Below, piece by piece: positions 32,906 to 51,295 of a stretch of DNA of 64,000 nucleotides. This DNA is from Methylococcales bacterium (GTDB lineage Bacteria; Pseudomonadota; Gammaproteobacteria; JABHGC01): positions 7,153-71,152 of the forward strand of contig JABHGC010000225.1 of the NCBI GenBank assembly GCA_018672285.1. The letters are read 5' to 3'. Position 1 is the first letter of the stretch; each line of letters starts with the position of its first letter. The notes below the pieces were generated by a model. That model made no database searches. It was not told the DNA's origin and worked only from the letters and a program-made list of their open reading frames with translations. A program made the translations under genes and the position numbers.

Positions 32906-33181
32906 AATTATCCAGTAACTTATTAATTTTTAAAACATAGTTCCAATATATAAAATAGTCGAATATCTACATTGGGTGGGGGGACATACTTAGAAATTCG
33001 CCAAATTTAAACATAAGCAACTGTTTATTGGTCTTATTTTTATATCATTATGATACTGCTGACGCAGATAAAATACCATCGCAAAAACACATCAAAGTTG
33101 CCTATTTTCTATGTGTTTAGGTAGCAATTTCTCACAACGATGGCCATACTCTATAGTATTTGCGCCATAAAGTGACTTTGC
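32906..33181. promoter_or_regulatory. AT-rich divergent intergenic region between the NRPS start and the kinase-like gene; promoters not mapped
   Basis: 277-bp non-coding AT-rich spacer between divergently oriented start codons. It contains a short palindrome, atcattatgat, at about 33047-33057. Confidence 0.3.
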
Positions 33182-34153
33182 ATGACCACCGATAAAGAAA
33201 GATGCCAGAAAATCACCAGTATGCTTTCCACGCTAACCGAAAATAAGCAACGCAGTGAGGTGATTTTACAGAGCATTATCCAAGATTTATCTCAGGTCCA
33301 AATAACTGCTAACATCCACACTATGCAATTGGAAAAGCAAGTCCAATACCTGACTCGCGAGCTCACCAAAAGTAACCTCACCTTACAAAATAAAGTCATT
33401 GAACTTGAAGACACCCGTGACAGGGCCATCAAATCAAACAAAGCAAAAAGTGCCTTTATAGCAACCGTTAGCAGACAACTACGCATGCCACTGGATGCCA
33501 TTATCGGCTACAGCACACTACTACTCGAAGGCCAAGGAAACCCTGAAGAGTTGCACGACGATTTACAGCAAGTGAATGTTGGTGCAGGACAAATATTAGA
33601 TTTAATCAATGACATTCTTGAACTCTCTGAGCTTGAATCTGGCCAAAGAGAACTGTCCATTGATGACTTTGTGGTCGAAGATTTTGTCAACGAAATCGAA
33701 ACCACAAGCCGCAAGGTGACTGACACCAATAACAATAAACTGATTATGGAGGTCAAGGCGGAACTCGGTGTCATGTCGACAGATATGAAAAAATTACGCC
33801 AAGCTCTGCTACATTTAATCAAAGCAGTCTCAACCAGAAACCATGATCACGTCATCCATTTTTCCGTTGAAACTGAAATCAGACACAACCTTTCGTGGTA
33901 TATTTTTAAAGTATCGGACTCATCTGAGATGAAAATGCCCGGAGAGAATTTTGAACATTTATTTGACCCATTTATTGATGTACCGATGACCAATGCACAT
34001 ATCTTAGAAGGCTGCGGTCTTGGCATGGCCATTACCAAACATATATGCAATATTTTACATGGGCGCTGCGGCATAGTGCATGACCCTGATTATGGCCCGA
34101 CTTTTTCTATTGCAATCCCGGAAACCCACCAACTTATGAACATGAATATTTAG
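33182..34153 (+). CDS. Cytoplasmic histidine-kinase-like protein (HisKA-like + HATPase_c) lacking the phospho-acceptor histidine
   Basis: No transmembrane segment and a coiled-coil N-terminus. The H-box position reads ATVSRQLRMPLDAIIGY (agc aga caa cta cgc atg cca ctg) where SHELRTPL is expected. An intact ATP-lid/G-box region is present (...GCGLGMAI...). Confidence 0.75.
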   Translation: MTTDKERCQKITSMLSTLTENKQRSEVILQSIIQDLSQVQITANIHTMQLEKQVQYLTRELTKSNLTLQNKVIELEDTRDRAIKSNKAKSAFIATVSRQLRMPLDAIIGYSTLLLEGQGNPEELHDDLQQVNVGAGQILDLINDILELSELESGQRELSIDDFVVEDFVNEIETTSRKVTDTNNNKLIMEVKAELGVMSTDMKKLRQALLHLIKAVSTRNHDHVIHFSVETEIRHNLSWYIFKVSDSSEMKMPGENFEHLFDPFIDVPMTNAHILEGCGLGMAITKHICNILHGRCGIVHDPDYGPTFSIAIPETHQLMNMNI

Positions 34154-34171: not shown

Positions 34172-34474
34172 ATGGCAAAAATTTTAGTGGTTGATGATGC
34201 CGAAATGATTCGCAAACTCATGTCCGCATTCTTTTCCAAACACGGCATTACTGTCACCACAGCAGTCGATGGCATGGACGGCTTTAACAAACTGAAAGCT
34301 GACCCTGAAATCAAATTGGTTTTTGCTGACGTCAACATGCCAGAATTAAATGGGCTAGCTATGGTTGAAAAAATTCGCAACGAACTTGAAACCGAAGCGG
34401 TTATTTTGATGCTCACCTCAGAAAACAGCAACGAAATGAAAGAACGAGGAAGAGCGCTTGGCGTCAAAGGCTGA
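34172..34474 (+). CDS. CheY-like receiver domain protein, ended by an in-frame TGA before the conserved KPF lysine. The reading frame continues to 34534.
   Basis: MAKILVVDDAEMIRKLMS...FADVNMPELNG...LMLTSE...GVKG then TGA at 34472-34474. The same frame continues as VVKPFNDPNVINLVKKIVA and ends at a TAA at 34532-34534. Confidence 0.7.
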   Translation: MAKILVVDDAEMIRKLMSAFFSKHGITVTTAVDGMDGFNKLKADPEIKLVFADVNMPELNGLAMVEKIRNELETEAVILMLTSENSNEMKERGRALGVKG

Positions 34475-34704
34475 GTCGTAAAACCCTTTAATGACCCCAA
34501 TGTCATTAATTTAGTGAAAAAAATTGTTGCATAAGCTGCAAACACAGCCTAAAAAAAAGCGGCACTCTCATGTTACCTCCCCGGCGCCACACCAAGTTTT
34601 AGCACGCCATGCACGCGCTTCAGCCAACATCAACAGCATTGCTTGATATACCCAGCTGTAGTAGTTTAAACCCATAAAAAAACGACATTGAGCACAACGC
34701 CGCC

Positions 34705-36717
34705 ATGCTAAAACTCCTTAAAAATCACTTAGGCTTATTTTTCAGCTTACTCACCTTACTCACCTTACAATGGTTTATGGTGCGAGAAAGCGGCGCAGGC
34801 ATGGCTTACGACCACTTACTTGCATTCGCCAACTTATCATTGAGCTATTGGCTGGTATTGCTGTTTTGGTTTATTTATCGTTTTTTTGCAATAAAACCTA
34901 GAGCCTGGTTTTTCCCTTTATTGATTCAAGCGACATTTACCGCCCTATTATACTCAAGCCAAGCGCTGTTTTTAAACCTTGATTCAATGCAGTACCTGCT
35001 TTTTTATGCCCTAACTTCCTTACCGTGGCTGCTCTGTGCAGCACTCATTGGCACAACCATCTCTCGCTTGTTTGTTTACCAAAGCATTCCCTTTAAAACG
35101 GTTATTTTCAGCGGCCTCATCATTTATTTTGTTGCCCCTATCCCGCAACCTAACAGCAACACTGACCCCAGCGCCACTGTGCCGCTCGGTGAGCTATCCG
35201 TCGATAACTACCAGTATGGGAGTGGCACGATACAGCGCCAAAGCCTGTATGAGACACCATACTGGAAAAGCAAAACAATAGACCTTGCCCAGTACATTGC
35301 ACCTCACCTCTCTAAAAACACAAAGGCCAGGGATCAATTTTGGCAGTTTGATTTAGCCCGGTTCCCACTCAATGCAGAGGTTTGGCTACCGAAAACCAGC
35401 CAACCGCAACCATTAGTTATCATCAGCCATGGTGATTTTTTCATGGAAAAATACTCCGAACATGGCTATGCCTACTTAGGCCAACACCTTGCCAGCTTAG
35501 GTTATGCAGTAGTATCTATTGATGCGAATGCACTGAACTGGAGTGCTGATGGTAATTACTGGAGACAAGAGGATCTTGCTCGAGCACAGCTTATTTTAGC
35601 GCATATCAAACAGATAAAAGCCTTCTCCGAACAAAGTGAACACCCTCTAGCCAATGTCGATCTTAACCAAATCGCTTTAATTGGCCATTCCCGTGGGGGA
35701 GACGCCATTATGCTAGCTGCAAAGCTCAACTTAGAAGGCCCTCAGTTTAATCTTAAGACATTAATTGGTTTAGCACCCGTTGACAGTATTGGCCTACCAA
35801 ACCATGAATCCCCAATCGCCTTAAACAACATCAACTACCTAGTGCTTCAAGGCGGGGTAGATACAGAACTGCCTTATTTCCAGGGACAAAATCATTATGA
35901 CAACGTCCATATAAGTGCTCCGGGGCTTCACAAACTGAGCATTTTCGCCACCAGGGCGGATCATAGCCAGTTTAATCAAGATTGGAGCGATGCGGCCAAA
36001 AAATCTTACCTTAGACCGCTCTATAATACCGCCAACACCATGCCGGACTATGAGCAGAGAAAGTGGGCAAAACTTGCCGTTACCCACTTCCTAAACCTGA
36101 CATTACGAGACAAATCTATTTGGCCTAAAATTTCTACCACCGCATTTTGGCAGCAACAGTTCGCTGCAGAAACATTCATTACCCAAAGAGCAGATTCGAG
36201 CCATGTCAAGCTCAATCGGTGGCCTAAAATCAAACCTAAAATCACCGATGCCAAAGCAAGAATTAGGCCGATCAGCCAACAAGGTATGCCTGAAATACAG
36301 CAGCAGGAAGCACTCAGCATCCACTGGAATGGTCAAGCAAAAGTCGACTTTTCCCTACCTTACAAATTAGACCTTCGCTACATGCAACTCAACTTAACCA
36401 CGCTATGCATCGCTCAAGCTCAAAATACCTCACTCACTGTGGTACTCATTGATAGCAGCGGCAAACAATCCAGCCAAGCCATTGACAACGCACTCTGCCG
36501 AGCATTACCGGCACAGCACTTTAATAGTCAATTGTTAAACGCTGCAATTCAAACCTTAGCCGAACCAAAACAACAGCAACACATCATCCCACTAGGCGCA
36601 TTCTTTAAAAACAGTGAAATTGCCCCTCTCAAAGTGACAAAAATACGCATTGAAGCGGATGCCAGCTTGCCGAGTGACCTAACCATTGTCTCAGCATCAC
36701 TTTCAGTTGAAGATTAA
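34705..36717 (+). CDS. Membrane-anchored alpha/beta-hydrolase (lipase/esterase-like, GHSRGG nucleophile elbow) with a C-terminal domain of unknown function
   Basis: The N-terminal roughly 150 aa contain several hydrophobic helices. A GxSxG elbow appears in ALIGHSRGGDAIMLAA. Overall resemblance is to PAF-acetylhydrolase/chlorophyllase-type hydrolases. Confidence 0.7.
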   Translation: MLKLLKNHLGLFFSLLTLLTLQWFMVRESGAGMAYDHLLAFANLSLSYWLVLLFWFIYRFFAIKPRAWFFPLLIQATFTALLYSSQALFLNLDSMQYLLFYALTSLPWLLCAALIGTTISRLFVYQSIPFKTVIFSGLIIYFVAPIPQPNSNTDPSATVPLGELSVDNYQYGSGTIQRQSLYETPYWKSKTIDLAQYIAPHLSKNTKARDQFWQFDLARFPLNAEVWLPKTSQPQPLVIISHGDFFMEKYSEHGYAYLGQHLASLGYAVVSIDANALNWSADGNYWRQEDLARAQLILAHIKQIKAFSEQSEHPLANVDLNQIALIGHSRGGDAIMLAAKLNLEGPQFNLKTLIGLAPVDSIGLPNHESPIALNNINYLVLQGGVDTELPYFQGQNHYDNVHISAPGLHKLSIFATRADHSQFNQDWSDAAKKSYLRPLYNTANTMPDYEQRKWAKLAVTHFLNLTLRDKSIWPKISTTAFWQQQFAAETFITQRADSSHVKLNRWPKIKPKITDAKARIRPISQQGMPEIQQQEALSIHWNGQAKVDFSLPYKLDLRYMQLNLTTLCIAQAQNTSLTVVLIDSSGKQSSQAIDNALCRALPAQHFNSQLLNAAIQTLAEPKQQQHIIPLGAFFKNSEIAPLKVTKIRIEADASLPSDLTIVSASLSVED

Positions 36718-36725
36718 ATAGCGGC

Positions 36726-37466
36726 TTATAACACAGACACAACTGAGGTTTTCCAGCAGCACACATTCGCATCATTCATTTGGCGCTCATATGCTAATGC
36801 GGCTTTAAACCCCAACGACCCCATATCAATAGAAGCCATTCCCCAACGCTGCGTCTCCTCAGGGAACTCAGCATCATTCAGCAATGCAGCGTCTACACCC
36901 ACTGACACATCAAAACTTTCCAACCCTCTCATCAACCCATCACCATGTGCTTTTACATAAGCCTCTTTACGCGTCCAACAGCGAAAAAAGGCATTTTTCT
37001 GATCATCAGGATCGCACGATAGTATCGCTGCATGCTCTTGTTTTGAAAAAAATCGTTGAGACAAACTAGACCATTCCACCCGCCTATCTTGCTGCTCTAA
37101 ATCCACCCCTAACCGCCTATCTAACGAAAAAGCAAACAAAGCTTGCCCATGTGAGTGAGACACATTAAATTGCAGCGCATTATTCACAAGAGCAGGTTTA
37201 CCCTGGCTTAAATATGAAAACTCAACAGATTTCGCAGGCATCGCTAAATAGTGACCAAGCAAACTACGCAACACGCCTCTGGCTACGGCAAAATGCATTT
37301 GATCTTGACGCCGGTAAAAGCGTTTAGCCCTAGTCAGCTCAGTCTCGTTTAGCACCTGTAAAAATCGTGACTCAAGCGCCAAATCTACCTCTAACCCCAA
37401 TGACCAAACATGAACCTCATCATCAGCAAGTGTTACAGGAAGTGTCGGTTGTAACCAGTGGGTCAT
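36726..37466 (-). CDS. 4'-phosphopantetheinyl transferase, Sfp/EntD type
   Basis: Signature motifs FNVSHSHG, GVDLE and WTRKEAYVKAHG, about 246 aa. Convergent with the hydrolase gene and about 3.8 kb from the NRPS start. Confidence 0.8.
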   Translation of the reverse strand: MTHWLQPTLPVTLADDEVHVWSLGLEVDLALESRFLQVLNETELTRAKRFYRRQDQMHFAVARGVLRSLLGHYLAMPAKSVEFSYLSQGKPALVNNALQFNVSHSHGQALFAFSLDRRLGVDLEQQDRRVEWSSLSQRFFSKQEHAAILSCDPDDQKNAFFRCWTRKEAYVKAHGDGLMRGLESFDVSVGVDAALLNDAEFPEETQRWGMASIDMGSLGFKAALAYERQMNDANVCCWKTSVVSVL

Positions 37467-37539
37467 GAGTGAATTACCTTAAATTTGACCACAGCAGGTC
37501 AGTTCGTCATTATGGCCTTTTGTTCAAAGCCGCCATCTA

Positions 37540-38403
37540 ATGTTAGCAAATAATTTTATCGAAGAAAAAATACCACAAGGCAGCAGCTTGTATTACAGCT
37601 TCCGCACAACCTCTGGTGATAAAAAACAGGCTATTTTCACGCTCTTCACCTGGTTTAAAACCTTAGAGGACATCATTGATATCCCTGAATACCAAGTGGC
37701 AGAAAAAACCTTCGCCTGGTGGGCAGATGAAACATGCCACTTACAGAGCGATGCCTCACACCCTATCAGCCAAGCCCTAGCTCCAATTCTAAAACAAACC
37801 CAATTACCACAGTCACATCTTGAAAAAATCTGCACAGCTTTACAAAGTAATCTGACAACAGTGCAATACGCCAACCAAAATGAATTAAACCTGTACACAA
37901 CAAGCACCTTATCCAGTTTAAACCTATTCATTGCAACCCTTCTTTTAAGCCAAGCTCCTACACAACAGGAGCGTGGCGCCATAGAGCAACTCAGCATGGC
38001 TATGCAATGGATGAAAATCATCAGGTCACTGAGGGACGACTGCTTAAGAGGTCACATTTACCTGCCACAAGATTTACTAAAACAGCACCAACTCAGCTCA
38101 ACCCAATTACTCTCGTGCCAACAAACGCCAGACAGCCTAAAGCAACTGATCACAGAGCTAAAGGGGGTCATTTACACCCAATTGACAAGCCTTCGTTCCA
38201 CACCTAAAAAGTTCCGAAGAGCACTTGCACCACTCATAACCCAAGCCCTTCTAGACTGGAAAATACTCAACCTAACCATCACTTCAGGCTGTGATATTTT
38301 TGAACAAAGACAAAGCCTCTCACCAGTACACAAACTTTTAAACACCAGTGCTAGCCTTTGGCAAATTCAACTTGGTATTCTTCCGCTGCAACGTATTGTT
38401 TGA
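37540..38403 (+). CDS. Squalene/phytoene synthase family protein with degenerate Asp-rich motifs
   Basis: SSLYYSF...LFTWFKTLEDIIDIPE aligns with the YAFCRxxDDxxD region, giving EDxxD. IIRSLRDDCLRGHIYLPQDLL aligns with ARDIxEDxxxGRxYLP, where the first Asp is replaced by Ser. Confidence 0.6.
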   Translation: MLANNFIEEKIPQGSSLYYSFRTTSGDKKQAIFTLFTWFKTLEDIIDIPEYQVAEKTFAWWADETCHLQSDASHPISQALAPILKQTQLPQSHLEKICTALQSNLTTVQYANQNELNLYTTSTLSSLNLFIATLLLSQAPTQQERGAIEQLSMAMQWMKIIRSLRDDCLRGHIYLPQDLLKQHQLSSTQLLSCQQTPDSLKQLITELKGVIYTQLTSLRSTPKKFRRALAPLITQALLDWKILNLTITSGCDIFEQRQSLSPVHKLLNTSASLWQIQLGILPLQRIV

Positions 38404-38456
38404 GATGAACATTCGTCTTATGATAGAGGTAAGTATACCGACACAAGGCTTAGCGC

Positions 38457-39200
38457 ATGAACTTCTCTGTACCTCCTAACAGCTTAAAAGACAAAGTTAT
38501 CTTAATCACAGGCGCTGGCGCAGGAATTGGCCGAGCAGTCGCCAAGGCACTTGCACTCCAAGGTGCGACCATCATTTTACTCGGCAAAACCATCTCGAAG
38601 CTTGAAAGTATTTACGATGAAATTGAGGCTGCTAATTGCCCAACCCCTGCAATCTATCCAATGGATTTAAGTGGTGCATCAGAACATGATTTAGGTGCGC
38701 TAATTGAGACCATCAATACAACGTTTCATCGCCTGGATGGCATCATACATAACGCGGCCTTTTTTGAAGCACTCACCCCATTTGACCAAGAGTCTGCTGA
38801 GTCATTATTAAAAGCCATGCAAGTTAACGTTAACACACCCTTTATCATCACCCAGCTAGCACTGCCACTTTTGAAACAATCCACCACAGCATCCATTATT
38901 TTTACTACTGATTCTGTTGGCAAAATTGGCAAAGCCTATACCGGTGTGTATGGCATTTCAAAGTTCGCCGTGGAAGGGATGGCACAAATTTTAGCGGAAG
39001 AACTCGAAGGCACAAGCGTTAGAGTGAATAGAGTTGAACCGATGGAGGTTCGCAGTGGACATAGCAGCCGAATTTATCCAGGTAAAGAAATTCAGAAATT
39101 AGCAGGCCCTGAAGACATCACTGCAGCTTACGTATATTTAATGAGCGACGAAAGTCAGGCTGTTCACGGTGAGTCAATCACTGCTGACACCACTCAGTAA
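38457..39200 (+). CDS. yciK: SDR-family oxidoreductase, YciK-like
   Basis: KVILITGAGAGIGRAVAKALALQGATIILLGK Rossmann motif. Length and sequence resemble E. coli YciK. Confidence 0.7.
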   Translation: MNFSVPPNSLKDKVILITGAGAGIGRAVAKALALQGATIILLGKTISKLESIYDEIEAANCPTPAIYPMDLSGASEHDLGALIETINTTFHRLDGIIHNAAFFEALTPFDQESAESLLKAMQVNVNTPFIITQLALPLLKQSTTASIIFTTDSVGKIGKAYTGVYGISKFAVEGMAQILAEELEGTSVRVNRVEPMEVRSGHSSRIYPGKEIQKLAGPEDITAAYVYLMSDESQAVHGESITADTTQ

Positions 39201-39250
39201 AATTCATGACTGCAGGTTAAGGTTAAAAGAAGTCATCACCCTTTGATAAC

Positions 39251-39295
39251 AAAAACGAGCAAAAGCACCTTCGGAGTGTGCTTTTGCTCGTTTTT
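39251..39295. terminator. Bidirectional rho-independent terminator between convergent genes
   Basis: Perfect 13-bp stem cgagcaaaagcac (39256-39268) pairing with gtgcttttgctcg (39278-39290), a 9-nt loop, an A-run upstream (39251-39255) and a T-run downstream (39291-39295). Confidence 0.75.
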
Positions 39296-39307
39296 ACAAA
39301 CTAACCG

Positions 39308-39904
39308 TTAAGCTGCGCCATCTAATAATTCAATTTGAAAACGCAAACTTTCTGGCATTTTTTTGGCTCTTCGACCCAGTAATGGTAATAATTTTTGCTC
39401 AACATAGTCATATTGACCGTCTGATAGAATTCGCTCAATTAACCAGTTGGCTTCCTCATCATCAATCTCATTGGGTGAATCAGAATCTTCAAGCAAATGA
39501 CGAGAGACTGTCCTTGCAAAAAATGCGCCCCAACTTGGATGATTTTCTTCGCTATTCGCCACTTGTTCATTTAAGTCGAATAAAAAATCTGCTAAAGGCC
39601 GTGTAATTTTTTCGGTCGTCGCTTTCACTGCTGGGAAAAGTTTTTTGATTTGCTGAACAAGCTCAGCTGACATACACCCACGATGGGCAACATGCTCGTT
39701 TATTGCAGAAAGTAATAAAGGGTTTGGTATGGTGGCTTTAATGCCATCATTACTGAAAATTTTGGTCAAATAACCAATACTGCTGATGCTCAAAGGTGAG
39801 CTATCGCTAATGTCTACCAGTAGTCGCTTCCGTTCAGCTGGTTTTAGAGTTGCGCTAAACGCACCCTTTTCACACTGAGATTTAATCTTCTTCTTATAAT
39901 CCAT
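39308..39904 (-). CDS. Hypothetical protein, acidic and helical
   Basis: ORF of 198 aa with no recognised family. Confidence 0.5.
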   Translation of the reverse strand: MDYKKKIKSQCEKGAFSATLKPAERKRLLVDISDSSPLSISSIGYLTKIFSNDGIKATIPNPLLLSAINEHVAHRGCMSAELVQQIKKLFPAVKATTEKITRPLADFLFDLNEQVANSEENHPSWGAFFARTVSRHLLEDSDSPNEIDDEEANWLIERILSDGQYDYVEQKLLPLLGRRAKKMPESLRFQIELLDGAA

Positions 39905-40392
39905 GGAAATCCTCCGCCAATGATTTTTTGCCCTCTTGTCAATTCCATAATCCTGAGGGTGTTTTTAGTTTTTTCAACCTCTGCTTATAATTACCTCCAT
40001 TACTCTATGTCTATAAAATTACACATCGTATTCTCAGGCAATGATACTCGCGCCACAGAAACTATCTACTCGGACATTCCCTAGCTTTTACCATTAAATA
40101 ATATTCTACTTTTATTGTGCGCGAGCGAAAAATTCAAATAAAACGTTAATTATCAATTATTTACAGATTAAAAGAAAAAATCATAAATCATTCAAATATT
40201 AACCATTTAAGAACAGACCTTTAATATAAAGTTCAATTTTTTTGCTTTTATTGTTAAAAGTATGCCACTGAATGCAGCTTACATTTCCCTTATGACAGCC
40301 GTATTACAAGACAATGTAAGCTTCTACCTACAAAGGGTCGTTGTGAACACACTCAGAATTCGCTAGCATCACACTTTTAACTTAGGCGAGCA

Positions 40393-41136
40393 ATGATGGT
40401 TCAGCGTGTAGAATTACTTCAGTACTTAAATGACCTCCTCAAACCTGAACAATTTAAGGACTATTGTCCAAACGGGCTACAAATTGAAGGCACTGACACC
40501 ATTGAGCACCTAGTCACTGGTGTCACCGCTTGCCAAGCATTAATCGACCAAACCGCTCAAGCTAAAGCCAGCGCATTATTGGTGCATCACGGTTTTTTTT
40601 GGAAAAATGAAGCACCTCAATTGGTTGGCATGAAACATCACCGAGTCAAAACCTTGATTCAGAATGACATTAACTTAATCGGTTATCACTTACCGCTGGA
40701 TGCACACCCTACCCTCGGCAATAACGCGCAGCTAGCAAGCCAACTTAAGCTTTCTATTGACCAAACTTTTGGCGATCAAAATTTAGCTGTCGCGGGTAAC
40801 ATAGACATTTCAACTAAAGCGCTAAGCGATCGGCTTTGCCAGGTCTTATCACGGCCACCAGAGGTATTTGGGGCGTCTCGACAAATTAAGAGGCTGGGCA
40901 TTTGTACAGGTGCTGCCCAAGGGTTTTTAACACAAGCTGCTGAACTTGGGTTAGATGCATTCATCAGTGGTGAGGTTTCAGAGTCAACTTTTCATATTGC
41001 TGAAGAGTTGAACATTCAATATTTTGCCGCAGGGCATCACGCCACAGAGCGGTTTGGTGTACAAGCCGTAGGCGCACACTTGGCGGAACATTTTGGGATC
41101 AGTCACCAGTTTATTGACATCAACAACCCTATTTAA
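40393..41136 (+). CDS. ybgI: Nif3-family dinuclear metal-centre protein (GTP cyclohydrolase 1 type 2 / YbgI-like)
   Basis: N-terminal ...LLQYLNDLLKPEQFKDYCPNGLQIEG... and overall length match Nif3/YbgI. Confidence 0.75.
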   Translation: MMVQRVELLQYLNDLLKPEQFKDYCPNGLQIEGTDTIEHLVTGVTACQALIDQTAQAKASALLVHHGFFWKNEAPQLVGMKHHRVKTLIQNDINLIGYHLPLDAHPTLGNNAQLASQLKLSIDQTFGDQNLAVAGNIDISTKALSDRLCQVLSRPPEVFGASRQIKRLGICTGAAQGFLTQAAELGLDAFISGEVSESTFHIAEELNIQYFAAGHHATERFGVQAVGAHLAEHFGISHQFIDINNPI

Positions 41137-41137
41137 A

Positions 41138-41686
41138 TTACAACCCTTTTACAGCATAAATCCCGGGGGCATTTCGCCAATGATTTTGATAATCCATGCC
41201 AAAACCAAAAACATAGCGATCAGCAATATCTAGGCCGACATAGTTAGGTCGGTACTCGACTTTGCGGTCGTGCACTTTATTCACCAACACGGCTGACTGC
41301 ACCGAATTGACATTTTCTGATTCACAGTACTCACACAATGCCTTCATTGTGTAGCCTTCGTCGAAGATGTCGTCAATTAGAATGACATTTCTACCCGCTA
41401 ATGCTGTCTTAGGGTAACCATACCAATGCAAATCGCCTCCAGACGTTTCACCTCGGTAGCGCGTCGCATGGACATAATCTATTTCTAACGGAAAAGACAA
41501 GCGCGTTGCTAGGTGCCCCATCATGACCACACCACCGACCATGACGGCCAGCAATAACGGTTGCGAGTCCGCATGTTCTTTAGTGATTTCTGCTGCCACC
41601 CGATCTAACGCTGCGTGCATTTCAGCTTCTGAATGCAATAAATCAGATTCATCAAAAACTTTTTGGTAGTCAACAGGTTCAGACAT
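41138..41686 (-). CDS. Hypoxanthine-guanine phosphoribosyltransferase family protein
   Basis: PRTase type-I motif VILIDDIFDEGYTMKAL with HGPRT-family architecture. Confidence 0.65.
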   Translation of the reverse strand: MSEPVDYQKVFDESDLLHSEAEMHAALDRVAAEITKEHADSQPLLLAVMVGGVVMMGHLATRLSFPLEIDYVHATRYRGETSGGDLHWYGYPKTALAGRNVILIDDIFDEGYTMKALCEYCESENVNSVQSAVLVNKVHDRKVEYRPNYVGLDIADRYVFGFGMDYQNHWRNAPGIYAVKGL

Positions 41687-41758
41687 GATATTTTCCTAGG
41701 GCGCAGTGTCAGTACAATATTCCCCCTAGTGTAGTGCCTTTACGAACCCCGAATCAAC

Positions 41759-42208
41759 CTATGCACTTTTTTGGTTTTTCTGAAAATCAATCACATCTTC
41801 CAGGGCTTGCAGAAGATCAACAGCCGACAAAATGCCCACGAGCTGCTGGGTTTTATCCAGCACGGGTAACGCCCCTTTTTTGTGCTCCTTCATTAGTTTC
41901 ACAGCCTTACCCAACGAATCATAGGTATGCAAAACCATCGGTCTTTTATCCATCACATCTTGACACAACAAATGATCATCTAAGTGATATATGTGTTCGA
42001 CATCATGCGCTTCATCTACCCAGTTTGGCCTTCTGATTTCACGATCACTGATCATTCCAACTAACTGTTGACTGTCATCTATAACGGGTAAGTGTCTAAT
42101 TTTATGCGCTTTCATAAAGAAAAAAGCTTCCCTTATCCCTTTCTCAGCATGAACTGACAATACTTTTTGCGTCATATACTCTGTGACTTTTGTAACCATA
42201 TTATTCAC
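41759..42208 (-). CDS. CBS-pair domain protein
   Basis: Two CBS-like repeats (...VMTQKVLSVH..., ...VGMISDREI..., ...LPVLDKTQQLVGILSAVDLL...). Confidence 0.65.
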   Translation of the reverse strand: MNNMVTKVTEYMTQKVLSVHAEKGIREAFFFMKAHKIRHLPVIDDSQQLVGMISDREIRRPNWVDEAHDVEHIYHLDDHLLCQDVMDKRPMVLHTYDSLGKAVKLMKEHKKGALPVLDKTQQLVGILSAVDLLQALEDVIDFQKNQKSA

Positions 42209-42309
42209 TTCCTCTTACAATGAAGATATTCTACCGGACTACCACAATCTACCGATAAAACCACCCGCTCAGTTATGACCTACGTCAAAAAGGTATTAAA
42301 TAACACGTT

Positions 42310-43473
42310 ATGGACAGTACACCTCACACACCACTCGGCAACCTTAGCCCTGCCAATTTTTTACAGCAATATTGGCAAAAAAAGCCCCTTGTTATCCGCC
42401 AAGGATTTCCCAACTTTACCTCTCCCATTAGCCCTGATGAGTTAGCAGGGCTTTCTTGTGAGGATGACGTTAACGCAAGGCTTGTGGTTGAACACAGTAA
42501 CCCGCCTTGGCATGTTCACTACGGCCCAATAGAAGAATCGCTATTCCCAACATTGCCAGAAACCCATTGGACCTTGCTCATTAATGACGTAGAAAAATGG
42601 CTACCAGAACTTTCGTGGATTGTTGATCAATTTCGATTTATTCCAGAATGGCTCATTGATGACCTGATGATTAGCTATGCACCTGAAGGTGGCTCAGTCG
42701 GCCCTCACCTAGACCGGTACGATGTCTTTATCTTACAAGCACAAGGTCACAGACGGTGGCAAATAAACACCCAGCCTGTCTCCCCTGAAAACCACATCGA
42801 CAACATCGACCTCTGCATTCAAAAGTCATTCACCGCTGAACAAGAATGGGTTCTGGCCCCTGGTGATATTATTTACATCCCTCCAGGGACAAGCCACCAT
42901 GGAGTTGCCCTAGATGACTGCATGAGCTTCTCTATTGGGTTTAGAGCACCTGCACACAGTGCATTACTCCATGATTTTTTGAACCATTTCAGTCGTCAAT
43001 TAAACCCTGAGGATGTATTCCGTCTACCAAATCTCACCAGCCAACCACACCCCTGTGAATTACCCGTAGAAGCCTTTGAGCAAGCACAAGACCTCATTAA
43101 CACCTTCTGCGCCACAGATAATCCAGAGTTTAAACAATGGTTCACGCAGTTTATGAGTGAAAATAACAGCCATATTCCCTGCGACGATGAACACAACACC
43201 ATTATGCAATTGCCAGACATCACAACAGACACTTTGCACCGCAACCCTGCTAGCCGGTTTGTCTTTAGCCGGGACGACAAAACCACTTGGCTCGCTGTAG
43301 ATGGCACTTGCTACCCATTAGAAACCCACTTAACCGAACAACTGTGTTTTGCTCGTGACATCAACCTTTCTAAGCTCACCTCACAAATTAGCGAAGAAGA
43401 TGCAGCAATACTTATTCTACTCCTTAATGCACAGCACCTTTTGCTTGGCAATTGCCCCGTCGCAGTCGAATAG
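42310..43473 (+). CDS. roxA: Cupin-4 / JmjC-type ribosomal protein uL16 arginine hydroxylase (RoxA/YcfD family)
   Basis: Strong collinear similarity to E. coli YcfD (QQYWQKKPLVIRQGFPNFTSPISPDELAGL...HLDRYDVFILQAQGHRRWQI...GDIIYIPPGTSHHGVAL). Confidence 0.8.
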   Translation: MDSTPHTPLGNLSPANFLQQYWQKKPLVIRQGFPNFTSPISPDELAGLSCEDDVNARLVVEHSNPPWHVHYGPIEESLFPTLPETHWTLLINDVEKWLPELSWIVDQFRFIPEWLIDDLMISYAPEGGSVGPHLDRYDVFILQAQGHRRWQINTQPVSPENHIDNIDLCIQKSFTAEQEWVLAPGDIIYIPPGTSHHGVALDDCMSFSIGFRAPAHSALLHDFLNHFSRQLNPEDVFRLPNLTSQPHPCELPVEAFEQAQDLINTFCATDNPEFKQWFTQFMSENNSHIPCDDEHNTIMQLPDITTDTLHRNPASRFVFSRDDKTTWLAVDGTCYPLETHLTEQLCFARDINLSKLTSQISEEDAAILILLLNAQHLLLGNCPVAVE

Positions 43474-43511
43474 ACTGAAGAAACTTCCCCTTATTTTTTA
43501 GGAAACAACAC

Positions 43512-44357
43512 ATGAAAATATCCATCATCGGAACAGGTCACATGGGGCTCGCTATGTTATCTAGGCTCAATACGGCACCCTTTGAATGTATGGCTTATAA
43601 TCGCAGCCCTGAAAGACTAAACGACCTACCTGATGGTGTAGTATCGACGGGTGACATTACTGAAGCCATTTCATTTGCCGAGGTTGCTATCTTCATAGTC
43701 TCTGACGCAGATGCCATACTCTCACTCCTTGATGGCCAAAATTTAACCAACAAAATTATTCTACAAATGGGCACCATTGCGCCAGATCAAAGCCTGCAAT
43801 GCGCGGATACGGTCACCAATATGGGCGGCCAATACCTAGAAGCCCCTGTACTTGGAAGTATTCCAGAATCTGCTGCCGGCACATTGCTGATTATGACCGG
43901 CGGTGACAATGCGACCTTTGAGCGCTGCCAACCCATTTTACAAAGACTCGGCAAATCCGTGCGGCATATTGGCAGCGTAGGGCAAGCGGCAGCCATCAAG
44001 TTGGCTTTAAACCAGCTAATCGCCTCGCTAACCAGCGCATTTTCGCTAACAGTCGGCTTTCTACAAAACAACCAGTTAGAGATAGACCCTTTCATGGAAA
44101 TTTTACGAGAAAGTGCGCTCTACGCCCCTACTTTCGATAAAAAATTACAAAAAATGCTAGATCGTGACTTTGAAAGCGCTAATTTTCCAATGCAACATTT
44201 ACTCAAAGATGTCGGTTTGTTTTTACAATCACCTGCAACAAAACCATTAGATAGCCGCTTTCTAGAGTCCATTCAGCAAACATTAATCGACGCAACACCA
44301 GAATACTCACAGCATGATTACTCAGCACTCTACAATCAAGTCAACCCAAAAGTTTGA
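43512..44357 (+). CDS. NAD(P)-binding oxidoreductase, 6-phosphogluconate/3-hydroxyisobutyrate dehydrogenase-like
   Basis: N-terminal MKISIIGTGHMGLAM Rossmann motif; 281 aa. Confidence 0.6.
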   Translation: MKISIIGTGHMGLAMLSRLNTAPFECMAYNRSPERLNDLPDGVVSTGDITEAISFAEVAIFIVSDADAILSLLDGQNLTNKIILQMGTIAPDQSLQCADTVTNMGGQYLEAPVLGSIPESAAGTLLIMTGGDNATFERCQPILQRLGKSVRHIGSVGQAAAIKLALNQLIASLTSAFSLTVGFLQNNQLEIDPFMEILRESALYAPTFDKKLQKMLDRDFESANFPMQHLLKDVGLFLQSPATKPLDSRFLESIQQTLIDATPEYSQHDYSALYNQVNPKV

Positions 44358-44463
44358 GAGCATGCCATACTAGGGTTATTCTTAATTATATTGGACAACA
44401 GCTTGCATCTATAATTAAGAATATTACAATGCGAACATAAAAATTACCCACTCGGAGTCATCA

Positions 44464-45873
44464 ATGTCCCGTATTTTAGCCAGCTTGATTCTTTGCTTAG
44501 GCATAGCACTTTCACCTGCCCATGCAAAAATCTCACTAGAAGATCAATTTTTTAACAGTACTGAGATTGAACAATACATTGAAGATTTTCCTGTACTCGC
44601 AGATTATGGGTTTAAGAAACAAGTGCGTGGCGCTGCTTTCTCTAAGCTGTTTCCCGCCAATAAAATGAGTAAACTCAAGCGTTTATTTAGATTCCCACAC
44701 GTAGATCAATACAAAGATTTAGCACAAGACAAGCTCACCTCAATGTTTACCGCCGAAGAAATCAAACAAATTGTGTCATGGAAACACTCAGGATTTGGCA
44801 AGCGCTTACAAAGATTGATTAAGTTTTCTCATACGGTTGATGGTATGGATCAAATGAAAACCTTTTTCACTAAGCAACAACCAACCAAAAAGCAACGATT
44901 AAAAGACATAAAACAACTCGCTAAAGATTTACGCGAAGTTGAGCTGTTAATTAATATTTCGGCACAAACCCAAACCACCATTCAAGTTGCTCTAGAAACA
45001 GTCACCAAAGAAAACCCCAGAGAATTCAAAGACATATTTACTATTCTGAGAAAAGTGGCACTTAAAAATCAAAAAAATGCCAAGAAATTTGTTCATGCTG
45101 ACTTGGTATACACCTACCGAACACTGTTAGATCGAGACATGAGAAAATATTTAGAGTTTTCAGGCTCAGCGCTTGGCAAAAAATATTACAAGTCACGACA
45201 ACGGGTCATCACCTGGATCATTTCTAAAATGAGCCATGACCTTTCAGTCTCAATTACCAAGTTAGTCGTTAGAAAAAAGGCGGGAGTGACCACTGAAAGC
45301 AACCCACAAGAAGACTATCAAGAGGACTTTCTCCGTGCTCAAGCACTCTTCAAAAAAGGCCAATATGCAACGGCTGTTCCTATCTTCGAAAGAATAGGCA
45401 AGCAAGGCCATATTCAAGCACAGTATTATCTAGGAAGAAGTTACAACGAAGGCCGACACGTCAATCTTAATGAAATGGTGGCTTATGCATGGTTCAACCT
45501 CGCAGGAGGACAAGGCCATAAACAAGCACGTAAAATCGCCAACAAAATGTTTGGCAACTTCTCGATGGTGACCATTTCTAAAGCCGGTAGAATGTCTCGA
45601 CAATACAAGAATAACTATCATGCAGATGCCGAGAAACGCCGTAAAAAATTAGAAGCTGAACAGAATGAAAAAGCACAATTTGAGGCAGATTTAGCGGCAA
45701 ACAAAGCCTTCTTACAAAAGAAAAAGGCGCTGAACAGTGCCTCTTCAGAAGAGAAAAAGAAACGCCGGCGATTGGCTAAACGTTCTGCCAAACATCGACA
45801 TTTATTACTTGAGCGCTACCCTCTTCCTGAACTGATGGGCAAAGCACCCACCATCATTACAGAGGCGGACTAA
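44464..45873 (+). CDS. Secreted protein with Sel1-like repeats and a Lys/Arg-rich C-terminal tail
   Basis: Signal peptide MSRILASLILCLGIALSPAHA. Sel1-like units (...GHIQAQYYLGRSYNEGRHVNLNEMVAYAWFNLAGGQGHKQA...). Tail KKKRRRLAKRSAKHRH. Confidence 0.6.
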   Translation: MSRILASLILCLGIALSPAHAKISLEDQFFNSTEIEQYIEDFPVLADYGFKKQVRGAAFSKLFPANKMSKLKRLFRFPHVDQYKDLAQDKLTSMFTAEEIKQIVSWKHSGFGKRLQRLIKFSHTVDGMDQMKTFFTKQQPTKKQRLKDIKQLAKDLREVELLINISAQTQTTIQVALETVTKENPREFKDIFTILRKVALKNQKNAKKFVHADLVYTYRTLLDRDMRKYLEFSGSALGKKYYKSRQRVITWIISKMSHDLSVSITKLVVRKKAGVTTESNPQEDYQEDFLRAQALFKKGQYATAVPIFERIGKQGHIQAQYYLGRSYNEGRHVNLNEMVAYAWFNLAGGQGHKQARKIANKMFGNFSMVTISKAGRMSRQYKNNYHADAEKRRKKLEAEQNEKAQFEADLAANKAFLQKKKALNSASSEEKKKRRRLAKRSAKHRHLLLERYPLPELMGKAPTIITEAD

Positions 45874-47779: not shown

Positions 47780-50700
47780 ATGCCCATCAAACAAAATGTT
47801 GGCTCCATTGACTCTATCATCCGTAAAGTGCTCGGTATTGGTGCCATATACTATGGTTTTATCTCTCCACAACTCGTTGGAGACCCTTTGTTTGCCAATT
47901 TATTGGGATTTCTTGGTGTCATCGTCATCATCAGCAGTTTATTTCGCTACTGCCCCTTATACGTGTTAGGAGAGTTTAAAAAAATATTCAACGCTAAAAG
48001 CAAAAAAACCGCCAAAGATCCTTCCCTCAGAACCACAAAAAAATATTTTTTTATTACCTTCTCTTTATTAACCGTCACCACCATCATCATTTTTGGCCTA
48101 GTGGCCTATCATAGCGCCGTTGAGATAAGCCAGGAAAGAGAAAATAGTTATACCAATACCCTCTTCAAAACCCATTCTGATTTTTTAGTCAGTAACGCCA
48201 ATGTTGACGATGTCCAATCATTACAAGATGTTGCTGCGAGTTTAAAAGGCTTTTTAGGACAGATTTTTGCCATCGAAAATGGCTATTTAATTCACCCTCT
48301 ATCCATTGGCAGCGGCATGATTATGTCCACTGCAGACATTCAGAGGCTCTCCATTCTCACCAGCAACGCAGGCACCCTCGATTTACCAGAACACCGCAGA
48401 CACTGGCAAAAAATTCCGCTACCCAATAGCCGTTATACCTTATTTGTCACTTACGACATGCCGCTGTATGAAACACAGTTGCTCGATGCATTTAACAGTA
48501 GATTGTTTGTTGCCAGTACCATTTTATTTTATTTTTACGTCTGGGGCACACTCATTGGAACCAGGTATATTTCCAAGAAATTTGACCTGATCAACTCAGC
48601 TCGCATGGAAAGTGAGGCACTGAACACGTTACTGCTTAACTCAACGGCAGAAGCGATTTATGGTGTCGATACCGATGGAAATTGCACTTTCTGTAACCCC
48701 GCGACGTTACAGCTGTTGGGTTATTCGGATGTAGACGACTTGTTAGGTAAAAATGTGCATAATTTAATGCACCATAGTCACCCAGATGGTTCAGAATATC
48801 CCATTGAAGACTGCCCAATGAACCGGGTTTTAAAACAAGGCCTCCCTGTACACGAAGATAATGAGGTTTTTTGGCGCGCCGACAACACCTGCTTCCCAGT
48901 TGAATACTGGGGCCACCCCATTGTACAAAATGACCAAGCACAAGGCATGGTCATGACCTTCTTAGACATTACCAAGCGTAAAGTCGCAGAAGCTGAAAGG
49001 CTAAAACTGTCCAGTGTTGTTGAGCAGTCTAAGGACCTCATTGTATTAACAGACAATCATGCCGTTATCAGCTATACCAATCCTGCATTTAGCGATATTA
49101 CCGGGTTTAGTTATGAAGATGCACTCGGTAAAGAAATTTCAATTCTCAACCAAGCACTGACTGAAAATGATGAACACGAACAAATTTTCGACACCCTAAA
49201 ACAAGGTGATATTTATCAAGACTCGTTTGTTAATTACCGAAAAAATGGTGATGCATATTATTTAGATTTATCTGTATATGGCCTTAAAAATCAACAAGGT
49301 GAGCTTGAATCTATTGTATATACTGGCCGTGATGTCACCGAGAAAATTGACACCGAAGAGACGATTCGCCAATCTGAGAGCGATAAAATAGAAGCTGAAG
49401 CTGCCAATCAATCGAAAAGCATCTTCTTAGCCAATATGAGCCATGAAATTCGCACACCAATGACTGCGATCATTGGCTTTGCCGAATCCTTGTTAGATGA
49501 TGATATTACCGAAATAGAACGAAGAGATGCCGTTAAAACGATTATTCGTGGTGGTCAACACTTAACCAGGATTATCAATGATATTTTAGATCTTTCTAAG
49601 ATAGAAGCTAACCGAGTTGATATTGAATCAATCCCGATAGACCTCTTAGAACTATTGGCTGAAATCAACAAGATTGCCAATATTCAAGTCAACAACAAGC
49701 ACATTGACTTTATTGATGAATACCAATTTCCACTACCAAGAATCATTCACTCAGACCCAACTCGGTTAAAACAAATTTTATTAAATTTAGTCACAAACGC
49801 GGTTAAATTTACCGATAGCGGTCATGTTGAGCTAACCCTGTCACATGACCCGCAAGAGCAATTAATTTTCTTTAAAATAAAAGATACCGGCATTGGGCTT
49901 AGCGACGAACAGCAACGTAAGTTATTCAACCCTTTCTCACAAGCAGAAAGCTCAACAACGAGACGTTACGGTGGCACCGGTTTAGGGCTGCATATTTCCA
50001 AACAACTCTCCGAACGAATGGGCGGCTCAATCACCGTTGAAAGCCAATTAAATGTTGGCAGTACATTTACCTTAAGCATTGCCAGTGGTTTGAAGAGCAC
50101 TCTTGCAGAAGACGAATTAATTACGACCCGCGAACAAGTCATTAAGACGGCGCATGAACATGACCACGTTTATGAGGATGCAACCCACGGTGCCAAGATA
50201 TTAATTTCAGAAGACAGTAAAGTCTCTCAAGCATTATTAAAACGGCTTTTCAAAGACAGCAATATTGAAATTGAAATCGTCGACAATGGAGAGCGAGCGT
50301 TAGAGCGCGCATTCGAGACAGAGTTTGACTTAGTCTTAACAGACATTCATATGCCGATCATGGATGGCTTAGAAGCCACTCAAAAAATGCGCGACAGAGG
50401 GTTTAAAAAACCCATTATTGCCATCACTGCCAACGTCATGAAAAATGACATCACCAATTATTACAGTGCAGGCTGTGATGCCGTTATTTCCAAACCCATC
50501 GAGAAAGACAATTTCTTTACGGTTATCAATAAATATTTAACTGACAAACAATATAAACCGAAGGCTACCACCACGGAGATTCCACAGCTGAGCGGCGAAA
50601 TATTAGTGGCAGAGGACAACCCAGATAATCAACGCCTCATTACGATGGTCATCAATAAAACAGGGGCAAACTTAAGTATCGCTGAGGATGGCTTATCAGC

Positions 50701-51295
50701 CATCGAACATACCTTAAGCAAGGATTACCACATCATTTTAATGGACATCAACATGCCATTAATGAATGGGCTTGAGGCGACTAAGAAGCTACGCAAAGCC
50801 GGTTATACCCTACCCATCTACGCTCTCACAGCTGATACAGATAAAGACAAGGTCACCGCGTTTGAAGAGGCAGGTTATGATGGTTATTTATCCAAGCCTT
50901 TAGACAACAGACAACTCTACAGCGTTCTAGAAAAATATTTACCCTGCAACAGTAAACCTGAAAAATTACCGACATATACCGAAGGGAAATCGGCAGAAAT
51001 GGCTTACGAGGAAGTCGATGAGGAAATTTTGTCGTTGATGATCTTGTTTGCGGAAAGATTACCCCCAATGATTGAACAAATTGACACTGCCATTAAAGAG
51101 CAAGACTGGGAAACAGCAGGCGCCGTCATTCACAATATTAAAGGGACTGCAGGTAGCTTTGGACACCCTAAATTAACACTGTTAGCTGGCGTGCTATCCA
51201 ACATCATCAAGAATGCCGATTATGATGATGCCCCTATTGCTTTTGCCGATGTCGTTGAATACGCCAAAAACCACGTTACGACGACCCCAAGTTAA
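47780..51295 (+). CDS. Hybrid sensor histidine kinase: DUF2892-like membrane N-terminus, PAS domains, HisKA, HATPase_c, two receiver domains and an Hpt domain
   Basis: N-terminus ...LFRYCPLYVLGEF (YgaP/DUF2892-like). H-box ANMSHEIRTPMTAIIGF. Receiver 1 ...DLVLTDIHMPIMDGLEA and receiver 2 ...HIILMDINMPLMNGLEA. Hpt HNIKGTAGSFG. Confidence 0.8.
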   Translation: MPIKQNVGSIDSIIRKVLGIGAIYYGFISPQLVGDPLFANLLGFLGVIVIISSLFRYCPLYVLGEFKKIFNAKSKKTAKDPSLRTTKKYFFITFSLLTVTTIIIFGLVAYHSAVEISQERENSYTNTLFKTHSDFLVSNANVDDVQSLQDVAASLKGFLGQIFAIENGYLIHPLSIGSGMIMSTADIQRLSILTSNAGTLDLPEHRRHWQKIPLPNSRYTLFVTYDMPLYETQLLDAFNSRLFVASTILFYFYVWGTLIGTRYISKKFDLINSARMESEALNTLLLNSTAEAIYGVDTDGNCTFCNPATLQLLGYSDVDDLLGKNVHNLMHHSHPDGSEYPIEDCPMNRVLKQGLPVHEDNEVFWRADNTCFPVEYWGHPIVQNDQAQGMVMTFLDITKRKVAEAERLKLSSVVEQSKDLIVLTDNHAVISYTNPAFSDITGFSYEDALGKEISILNQALTENDEHEQIFDTLKQGDIYQDSFVNYRKNGDAYYLDLSVYGLKNQQGELESIVYTGRDVTEKIDTEETIRQSESDKIEAEAANQSKSIFLANMSHEIRTPMTAIIGFAESLLDDDITEIERRDAVKTIIRGGQHLTRIINDILDLSKIEANRVDIESIPIDLLELLAEINKIANIQVNNKHIDFIDEYQFPLPRIIHSDPTRLKQILLNLVTNAVKFTDSGHVELTLSHDPQEQLIFFKIKDTGIGLSDEQQRKLFNPFSQAESSTTRRYGGTGLGLHISKQLSERMGGSITVESQLNVGSTFTLSIASGLKSTLAEDELITTREQVIKTAHEHDHVYEDATHGAKILISEDSKVSQALLKRLFKDSNIEIEIVDNGERALERAFETEFDLVLTDIHMPIMDGLEATQKMRDRGFKKPIIAITANVMKNDITNYYSAGCDAVISKPIEKDNFFTVINKYLTDKQYKPKATTTEIPQLSGEILVAEDNPDNQRLITMVINKTGANLSIAEDGLSAIEHTLSKDYHIILMDINMPLMNGLEATKKLRKAGYTLPIYALTADTDKDKVTAFEEAGYDGYLSKPLDNRQLYSVLEKYLPCNSKPEKLPTYTEGKSAEMAYEEVDEEILSLMILFAERLPPMIEQIDTAIKEQDWETAGAVIHNIKGTAGSFGHPKLTLLAGVLSNIIKNADYDDAPIAFADVVEYAKNHVTTTPS

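Follow-up and report, generated by a model that had tools for sequence, protein, structure and literature searches.

A histidine kinase homologue with arginine at the phospho-acceptor position, encoded beside a giant NRPS gene, is probably a non-catalytic member of a small pseudokinase family

Pseudo-histidine kinases are a recognized class of which few members have been characterized, and 722 of 76,471 sampled HisKA domains (0.9%) were found to be without the histidine (bioRxiv 10.1101/2025.06.23.661182). The question raised by the present locus is what such a protein does when it is encoded next to a giant NRPS gene, and whether that position says anything about its function. Within the window, that is, the whole 64,000-nucleotide stretch of Methylococcales bacterium DNA analyzed here, positions 33182–34153 of the + strand form an ORF of 323 amino acids. 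The original prediction took its product to be a soluble pseudokinase, or a phosphatase or scaffold, that would constitute a non-canonical regulatory module for the NRPS cluster together with an adjoining receiver gene.

Comparison of the 323-residue protein with Pfam revealed matches above the gathering score to both HisKA (51.1 bits, E 1.4e-13, residues 88–154 aligning with profile positions 1–66) and HATPase_c (33.1 bits, E 8e-8), which bears out its description as a histidine kinase (HK) homologue. The DHp (HisKA) domain, which shows the strongest constraint within the protein, spans residues 78–157 (33413–33652, + strand) and is followed by the CA (HATPase_c) domain (33653–34126, + strand), in which the fold is kept and the nucleotide-binding motifs are degenerate. 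The N-terminal ∼77 residues (33182–33412, + strand) are predicted to form a polar, coiled-coil helix without sensor domain or transmembrane (TM) segment; no significant Pfam match was obtained for this region, and no recognizable sensor domain was present in the protein. The Kyte-Doolittle maximum was 1.16 (19-residue window) and no hydrophobic segment was found, consistent with the predicted solubility.

An AlphaFold2 model built from 61 sequences (pLDDT 86) has the canonical HK fold, with low confidence limited to the part of the CA domain around the ATP lid, at about residues 250–280. In the model, an unbroken helix extends from residue 4 to 117, such that the coiled-coil-like N-terminal helix merges into DHp helix 1; DHp helix 2 comprises residues 122–153 and leads into the alpha/beta CA domain. 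The top PDB fold matches identified by Foldseek were GacS, RetS, and DivL, followed by HK853, WalK, and CpxA. Pfam, AlphaFold2, and Foldseek are thus in agreement that the protein combines the HisKA DHp domain and the HATPase_c fold of a class I HisKA-type kinase.

Inspection of the H box, which reads VSRQLRMPL, places Arg98 (codon AGA, 33473–33475, + strand) at the phospho-acceptor position, with Gln99 at H+1, where Glu is normal, and Met102 at H+4, where Thr or Asn is normal. Pairwise HMMER alignments paired Arg98 with the phospho-acceptor histidine of HK853 and GacS, and with the tyrosine of DivL. In an outgroup of 56 canonical homologues, His, Glu (H+1), and Thr (H+4) were present in 100% of sequences, compared with Arg, Gln, and Met in the window protein. 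Of the 120 best database homologues, 115 had histidine in the acceptor column and three had arginine, these three being the protein's own family (the other two gave no match to the H-box pattern); the next 148 cluster representatives yielded 214 H-boxes, all 214 with His. The phospho-acceptor histidine of a class I kinase is therefore absent, as had been claimed, judged by alignment both to solved kinases and to at least 56 homologues. The H+1 acid and H+4 Thr/Asn are likewise missing from the family, the two closest relatives (P0002 and P0003) having Gln and Ser at these positions.

The possibility that another histidine serves as a substitute acceptor was considered and rejected. Only His46 and His125 lie ahead of the CA domain, and neither is conserved, the relatives having Glu or Gln instead; His125, which is Gln in both relatives, stands at the start of DHp helix 2, ∼27 residues off the acceptor site. 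The statement that the dimerization helix holds no other histidine is therefore literally incorrect on account of His125, but holds in that no conserved alternative exists, and the HMM alignment likewise placed no different, conserved histidine at the acceptor position.

That the arginine is not a sequencing error had been argued from the codon AGA lying two substitutions away from any histidine codon. The count is wrong, since AGA and CAY differ at all three positions, but the conclusion stands: the relatives also encode arginine, with CGT and CGG, and three different arginine codons in three lineages exclude both a sequencing error and a recent mutation at Arg98. Given the CGT and CGG codons of the relatives, the simplest history would be one CAY-to-CGY transition in the common ancestor of the family, followed by synonymous drift.

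In four HisKA proteins, the H+1 acid was found to be needed for kinase activity and the H+4 Thr/Asn for phosphatase activity (PMC3510030). With Glu replaced by Gln at H+1 and Thr by Ser or Met at H+4, the motifs for both activities are therefore gone. These substitutions bear directly on the idea that the protein is a dedicated phosphatase, which has lost kinase activity and still dephosphorylates a cognate phosphorylated receiver. In its favor, literature reviewed in a recent preprint describes the histidine as non-essential for HisKA phosphatase activity (bioRxiv 10.1101/2025.06.23.661182), and the relatives retain Ser at H+4 together with intact N, G1, and G2 boxes. Nevertheless, the H+4 requirement seen in the four HisKA kinases is satisfied neither by the Met of the window protein nor by the Ser of the relatives, and domain frequencies led the authors of that preprint to argue against dephosphorylation as the main role of pseudo-HKs (bioRxiv 10.1101/2025.06.23.661182). 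Phosphatase activity of the window protein is unlikely because H+4 is Met, and a dedicated phosphatase is accordingly regarded as a most improbable identity for the protein.

The family to which the protein belongs is a small, lineage-restricted group within the pseudokinase class. A word-indexed search of 5.8 billion proteins returned three 90% clusters (P0001–P0003), and an HMM search run exhaustively on 1.84 billion representatives returned one family cluster (50% level) at 622 bits, the next match scoring 294 bits. No close relatives were present in 185,579 GTDB species genomes, a DNA-pattern scan of JGI metagenomes detected no members beyond P0001–P0003, and a literature search by accession numbers gave no matches. 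The two relatives, both from uncultured organisms, are 52–53% identical to the window protein and 78% identical to each other. Arginine occupies the acceptor site in all three members (AGA in the window, CGT and CGG in the relatives), so that an HK fold is combined with a replaced histidine conserved among orthologues, as expected of a histidine pseudokinase. The substitutions H98R, E99Q, T102S/M, and N105D are common to the whole family at columns that are 98–100% conserved in the outgroup, and N211H is also found in all three members.

To describe constraint in these three sequences, raw pN and pS were used in place of dN/dS, which is not computable because synonymous sites in the family are saturated (pS 0.73–0.88). 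The DHp domain of the window protein is 78–80% identical to those of the relatives (pN 0.16, pS 0.84–0.88), with pN of 0.04 between the two relatives and a range of identity over the family of 78–93%. Identity is lower in the CA domain (46–47% between window and relatives; family range, 46–80%) and in the N terminus (33–34% against the relatives; family range, 33–60%), the latter containing a conserved patch, QR.E.ILQ.II..LS. Overall, the divergence of the HK homologue (53% identity) resembles that of its syntenic neighbours (38–65%), namely PPTase (54%), SDR (65%), NIF3 (60%), a hypothetical protein (52%), and SQS_PSY (38%). Retention of arginine despite saturated pS, the low pN of the DHp domain, and the neighbour-like divergence together indicate, as far as sequence comparison goes, that the gene is under purifying selection rather than decaying.

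In stark contrast to the DHp domain, the CA domain of the window copy has not been preserved, and the earlier view that the ATPase domain is intact must be withdrawn. The HATPase_c score of 33 bits compares with 68 and 71 bits for P0002 and P0003, and three other kinases encoded in the window score 88–102 bits. The N box (33800–33841, + strand) reads QALLHLIKAVSTRN, whereas the relatives have QAILHILKNAAKFT and canonical kinases have LLNLLSNAxKFT; the changes private to the window copy are N215A, which removes the Mg/ATP asparagine, K218T, F219R, and T220N. The G1 box (33917–33934, + strand) reads DSSEMK, as opposed to DTG(I/V)G in the relatives and in canonical kinases, and contains a one-residue insertion; both glycines of the DxGxG motif are replaced (G248S and G251K) in the window copy only. 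G223H and Q266D are further window-only changes. The N-box asparagine and the G1 motif are kept in P0002 and P0003, and the G2 box GxGxG (Gly277, Gly279, and Gly281) and the F box (Phe261 and Phe264) are invariant.

At outgroup-conserved positions of the CA domain, 18 private changes were counted in the window copy versus five in the relative (chi-square ∼7.3, p ∼0.007), whereas the corresponding counts in the DHp domain were two and three. This asymmetry, together with the window-only losses in the N and G1 boxes, indicates that the window lineage has given up nucleotide binding, with loss of the constraint on it, while the DHp domain stays constrained. Autophosphorylation of the window protein would be impossible, because the acceptor histidine, the H+1 acid, the N-box asparagine, and the G1 glycines are all absent. 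The designation pseudokinase is thus strengthened: the histidine and the H+1 and H+4 residues are replaced family-wide, and in the window copy the ATP-binding motifs are gone as well.

The gene that follows is also altered. A receiver ORF begins 18 nt downstream of the HK homologue and encodes a CheY-like single-domain receiver (34172–34474, + strand) that is truncated by a TGA codon (34472–34474) after residue 100; the claim that the HK homologue lies next to a receiver gene is therefore correct as to position, but the gene is interrupted in seven assemblies. The truncated product gave a Response_reg match in Pfam of 65 bits over profile positions 1–94 of 111. Asp8, Asp9, Asp53, and Thr82 of a functional receiver are present, but the TGA at codon 101 removes the conserved catalytic lysine (KPF), and the product is left without beta5 and alpha5. 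The TGA sits at the conserved tryptophan of the motif GVKGW(I/V)VKPF, which homologues read as GVKGWIVKPF, and the remainder of the receiver is intact in frame (VVKPFNDPNVINLVKKIVA, followed by TAA; 34475–34534, + strand). Replacing TGA by a tryptophan codon yields a receiver of 120 residues that scores 78 bits over profile positions 1–110 of 111. All seven independent assemblies spanning the site carry the TGA, which looks like a recent nonsense mutation; low-level readthrough may occur there.

Other interpretations of the TGA codon were rejected. An alternative genetic code is inconsistent with the use of TGA to end three other ORFs in the window; tryptophan in the NRPS is encoded by 127 TGG codons and no TGA. 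Selenocysteine was discounted, there being no Rfam SECIS or other match. A seemingly intact 120-residue receiver in the databases (P0121) was traced to erroneous gene calling, since the TGA is found in its contigs too.

Assemblies of the source organism are virtually identical, and the same allele of the HK homologue was found in assemblies from several samples. A single-base difference at 33988 (+ strand), where the window has G and five metagenome assemblies have T, is non-synonymous, giving Met269 and Ile269, respectively, in the ATP-lid region; over shared sequence of up to 13.8 kb it is the sole mismatch. Located 7 kb from the HK homologue, the NIF3 gene is 100% identical to the copy in GCA_018661205.1 (a “Methylococcales bacterium” MAG), of which a 7.5-kb contig is an exact match to window positions 37163–44631.

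Accelerated change in the CA domain of the window copy and the dead receiver beside it raise the possibility that the whole module could be decaying in the window lineage. Under such an explanation, the HK-receiver pair has fallen into disuse and is becoming a pseudogene, the intact ORF reflecting the recency of the loss. The window-specific N-box and G1-box losses, the 18 versus five CA changes, the nonsense codon in the adjacent receiver, and the location of the sole SNP in 13.8 kb, which is non-synonymous and falls within the HK homologue, would all be in keeping with decay. Set against these are an ORF of full length with no frameshift, an allele that recurs in assemblies from several samples, a CA fold predicted with high confidence, and a DHp domain that shows no excess of change on the window branch (two versus three) and remains 78–80% identical to its relatives across saturated synonymous divergence. 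Decay of the pair is on balance considered unlikely.

To what extent the neighbouring NRPS gene bears on function was assessed from gene context. The 5′ part of the giant gene occupies positions 2–32905 of the − strand (start ATG at 32905; at least 10,968 codons), within a minus-strand reading frame that has no stop between 32929 and the window's left end and runs past it; it is described here for context only. In its first 4,000 residues, a FAAL-type AMP-binding domain is followed by an ACP and then by repeated C-A-T modules, and this FAAL-ACP-(C-A-T)n layout, on the strand opposite to the HK homologue, confirms the divergent arrangement originally described. The AT-rich intergenic region between the two starts (32906–33181; 276 bp) contained promoter-like hexamers at a frequency not above the shuffled expectation, only weak inverted repeats, and no Rfam match.

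Such an arrangement is compatible with a cluster-situated regulator, in which pseudokinase and receiver form a two-component module controlling transcription of the divergent NRPS gene: the two genes start 276 bp apart on opposite strands, the receiver ORF lies 18 nt downstream, and a PPTase and an alpha/beta-hydrolase are encoded close by. However, the PPTase, which is of the Sfp/HetI type (36726–37466, − strand; Pfam ACPS, with the NCBIfam HetI-like match below cut-off), shares synteny with locus L001, and the PPTase-SQS_PSY-SDR-NIF3 block represents conserved synteny rather than a cluster-specific set. At L001/L002, which encode P0003, the gene is flanked on one side by an AmiC-type amidase (AMIN/Amidase_3/LysM), which is divergent, and on the other by a convergent PPTase; beyond the PPTase, SQS_PSY, SDR, a hypothetical gene, and NIF3 follow in the order also seen to the right of the window gene. 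At L004, which encodes P0002, the gene has the amidase on one side and a PHO4 transporter on the other. The NRPS, the receiver, and the 670-residue hydrolase were absent within ∼10 kb at L001 and on the short contig of L004, so that, in this very small sample, the HK homologue does not co-occur with an NRPS gene at either of two orthologous loci; an AmiC-type amidase is found instead.

The lineages of P0002 and P0003 are sisters (amidases, 84% identical; proteins, 78%), and gain of the NRPS, receiver, and hydrolase in the window lineage and their loss in the other are therefore equally parsimonious. Even so, the family persists without NRPS and receiver, and its function therefore cannot depend on them; it is maintained independently of the NRPS. 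The receiver itself provides little encouragement for a cluster regulator, since it has no output domain, its TGA is fixed in seven assemblies, and no DNA-binding component is present. In addition, the closest receiver homologues (51–59% identity) lie in flagellar/chemotaxis-like clusters, adjoining CheA-like and CheX-like genes, and were not found beside kinases of the type of the HK homologue. Given orthologous loci without NRPS or receiver, an adjoining receiver interrupted by a nonsense codon, and receiver homologues of a chemotaxis-like setting, the proposed non-canonical regulatory module for the cluster is not sustained, and control of the NRPS by the pair is quite improbable. A local regulatory link may nonetheless exist in the window genome, adjacency being the sole observation in its support.

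With catalysis, decay, and cluster regulation weighed in this way, the window protein is probably a non-catalytic histidine pseudokinase, presumably a dimeric DHp scaffold with a receiver or a kinase as its binding partner. A binding scaffold is suggested because the catalytic residues have been lost, the DHp surface is constrained, and the nucleotide-binding motifs have proved dispensable in one lineage. Of the dual label phosphatase/scaffold, the first half is unlikely to apply to the window protein (Met at H+4), and the second is the best explanation. The sequence comparisons and the model show directly that the catalytic residues are lost, that their loss is conserved in the family, that the DHp domain is constrained, and what the fold, the gene contexts, and the receiver stop codon are; that the protein dimerizes, that it acts by binding, and which partner it binds are inferred. 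The pseudokinase would form a homodimer, as HisKA proteins do, and its conserved DHp surface would bind a partner protein in one of two ways. It may hold or sense a receiver domain, in the manner of DivL and phosphorylated DivK, or it may associate with a bona fide (hybrid) histidine kinase and modulate it, in the manner of RetS and GacS. The window encodes three hybrid kinases. Both relatives are orphans and the sole receiver adjoining the window gene is truncated, observations that were counted against a scaffold.

The arginine might itself be a working residue. In this proposal, Arg98, standing at the site from which the histidine faces a receiver's acidic pocket, would form a salt bridge with the phospho-aspartate or the Asp cluster of a partner receiver, and the DHp domain would act as a reader of phosphorylation state or as a clamp that protects or sequesters the receiver. 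In the JGI metagenome DNA-pattern scan, 12 unrelated HisKA genes with SRELRTPLNAIIG(F/Y) were detected, showing that the His-to-Arg change recurs; among the 12 is a second small family that retains arginine (L055, L057, and L059; 69–79% identical). As arginine recurs in this second, diverged lineage, a general mechanism of “Arg-type” pseudo-HKs could exist, and in the window genome such a clamp might be linked to the control of giant lipopeptide synthetase expression. The Arg98 clamp is a speculative reading, to which a very low probability is attached.

The strong constraint on the DHp domain, although all catalytic positions have been replaced, would make the family a clean system in which to ask what a dead DHp domain binds. 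The locus also carries a lesson for genome mining, in that adjoining a giant NRPS gene does not make a gene a cluster regulator.

Comparison with known systems places the protein closest in sequence to canonical, often hybrid, HisKA kinases of the TorS/LuxQ/ArcB/BarA type, to which it is 33–37% identical; these also supplied the best NCBIfam similarities, all far below cut-off. By contrast with the window protein, the H box of such kinases (consensus ANKAKSxFLAxMSHELRTPLNAIIGYSE) contains His, Glu, and Thr, and their N, G1, and G2 boxes are intact; they also possess sensor domains and, in many cases, a receiver.

RetS and GacS of Pseudomonas aeruginosa (PDB 6dk7, 7n0e, and 7z8n) are among the top structural matches. 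Through direct contact between DHp domains, RetS modulates a second kinase, for which its own phosphorylation is not needed (co-complex 7n0e), and this contact provides a model for how a dead DHp domain may act. Unlike the 323-residue soluble core encoded in the window, both are hybrid kinases that are anchored in the membrane, possess sensor and receiver domains, and retain the histidine.

The best PDB sequence match (E 2.5e-21), also a top fold match, was DivL of Caulobacter crescentus (PDB 4q20), the classic histidine pseudokinase, which likewise has a HisKA plus HATPase_c core in which the acceptor histidine is replaced, in this case by tyrosine. DivL is described as working by binding the receiver DivK~P and not by phosphotransfer (PMC4211667; PMC12963549). 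The two proteins are only ∼26% identical. In DivL (SYELRTPL), H+1 is still Glu and H+4 still Thr, where the window protein has Gln and Met beside its arginine, and this alphaproteobacterial protein has an N-terminal TM segment and PAS domains as output, which the window protein lacks. Orthology to DivL was therefore rejected on the basis of Arg rather than Tyr, the lack of PAS and TM regions, and the gammaproteobacterial origin of the MAG. The resemblance to GacS, RetS, and DivL may reflect the HisKA subfamily alone and not a common mode of action.

PsmA, the polarisome pseudokinase of Streptomyces venezuelae, has no H-box histidine and no D/ExxT/N motif, and its ATP-binding residues are altered; it is conserved in one lineage and gene context, acts via protein-protein interaction, and binds DivIVA (PMC12963549). 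PsmA is nevertheless a large, hybrid-type actinobacterial protein with PAS domains and a receiver, and its likeness to the window protein lies in the shared HK core. The window protein is no orthologue of DivL, RetS, or PsmA. It belongs to a very small, lineage-restricted pseudokinase family that is notable mainly for its minimal architecture: helix, DHp, and CA with no sensor, approximately the smallest possible pseudo-HK.

The receiver gene, which encodes a CheY-like single-domain protein and begins 18 nt downstream of the pseudokinase gene, is interrupted: its open reading frame occupies positions 34172-34474 of the window, where the codon for a conserved tryptophan is replaced by an in-frame TGA (34472-34474). 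The same TGA was present in seven assemblies, and the 19 codons that follow it, with the rest of the frame extending to 34534, still specify a perfect receiver C terminus. Two readings fit: a nonsense mutation that became fixed very recently, or a site of readthrough.

A seemingly "intact" 120-residue form of this receiver is held in the protein database (entry P0121), with tryptophan at position 101. Inspection of the two contigs behind this entry (L060, 91-453; L061, 76-438) revealed that both read TGA rather than a tryptophan codon. Therefore, the tryptophan in P0121 apparently arose from a gene caller applying a code in which TGA specifies tryptophan to these short contigs. The same caution is needed with other database proteins derived from short metagenome contigs.

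Between the receiver and phosphopantetheinyl transferase (PPTase) genes lies a gene for a 670-residue protein (34705-36717, forward strand) with a chlorophyllase/PETase-like alpha/beta-hydrolase core and several hydrophobic segments in its N terminus, for which no NCBIfam match was found. The hydrolase gene is missing from L001, the orthologous locus of pseudokinase relative P0003, and the hydrolase and the NRPS may belong together. At L001, the 3' end of the pseudokinase gene shares 26 nt (10947-10972) with that of the convergent PPTase gene; in the window, the two genes are 2.6 kb apart, with the receiver and hydrolase genes between them.

The NRPS is encoded on the reverse strand as a single open reading frame (2-32905), which spans at least 10,968 codons and has not closed where the window ends. 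At its start are a fatty-acyl-AMP-ligase-like domain and an ACP, and C-A-T modules come after these. The protein is a very large lipopeptide-type synthetase of an uncultured "Methylococcales" MAG. The NRPS interior is a break point of metagenome assemblies.

Comparison of up to 13.8 kb of the window with five metagenome assemblies revealed a sole mismatch, a G/T difference at position 33988. As a result, residue 269, located in the ATP-lid of the pseudokinase, is Met in the window but Ile in all five assemblies.

Signalling genes are dense in the right half of the window (47780-51295, 53006-55174, 57811-58968 and 58919-61150). The set comprises a PAS-rich hybrid kinase with two receivers and an Hpt domain, a dCache_3-linked Ser/Thr protein kinase, a receiver-first kinase and a HAMP hybrid kinase, and the signalling kinases listed all gave normal HATPase_c scores (88-102 bits). 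Also to the right of the pseudokinase are two open reading frames with no Pfam family, one encoding 469 residues (44464-45873, forward strand) and one encoding 198 residues (39308-39904, reverse strand), the latter with a syntenic, 52% conserved counterpart in L001.

Substitution of the acceptor histidine by arginine was also observed in other HisKA proteins from JGI metagenomes, in which the arginine codon is CGY and Glu at H+1 and Thr at H+4, counted from the acceptor position, are retained (MSRELRTPLNAIIGF). The loci concerned are L055, L057 and L059, together with L047/L058, L050/L053 and L051/L052/L056. Because L055, L057 and L059 share 69-79% pairwise identity, they form a second conserved lineage of Arg-type pseudokinases.
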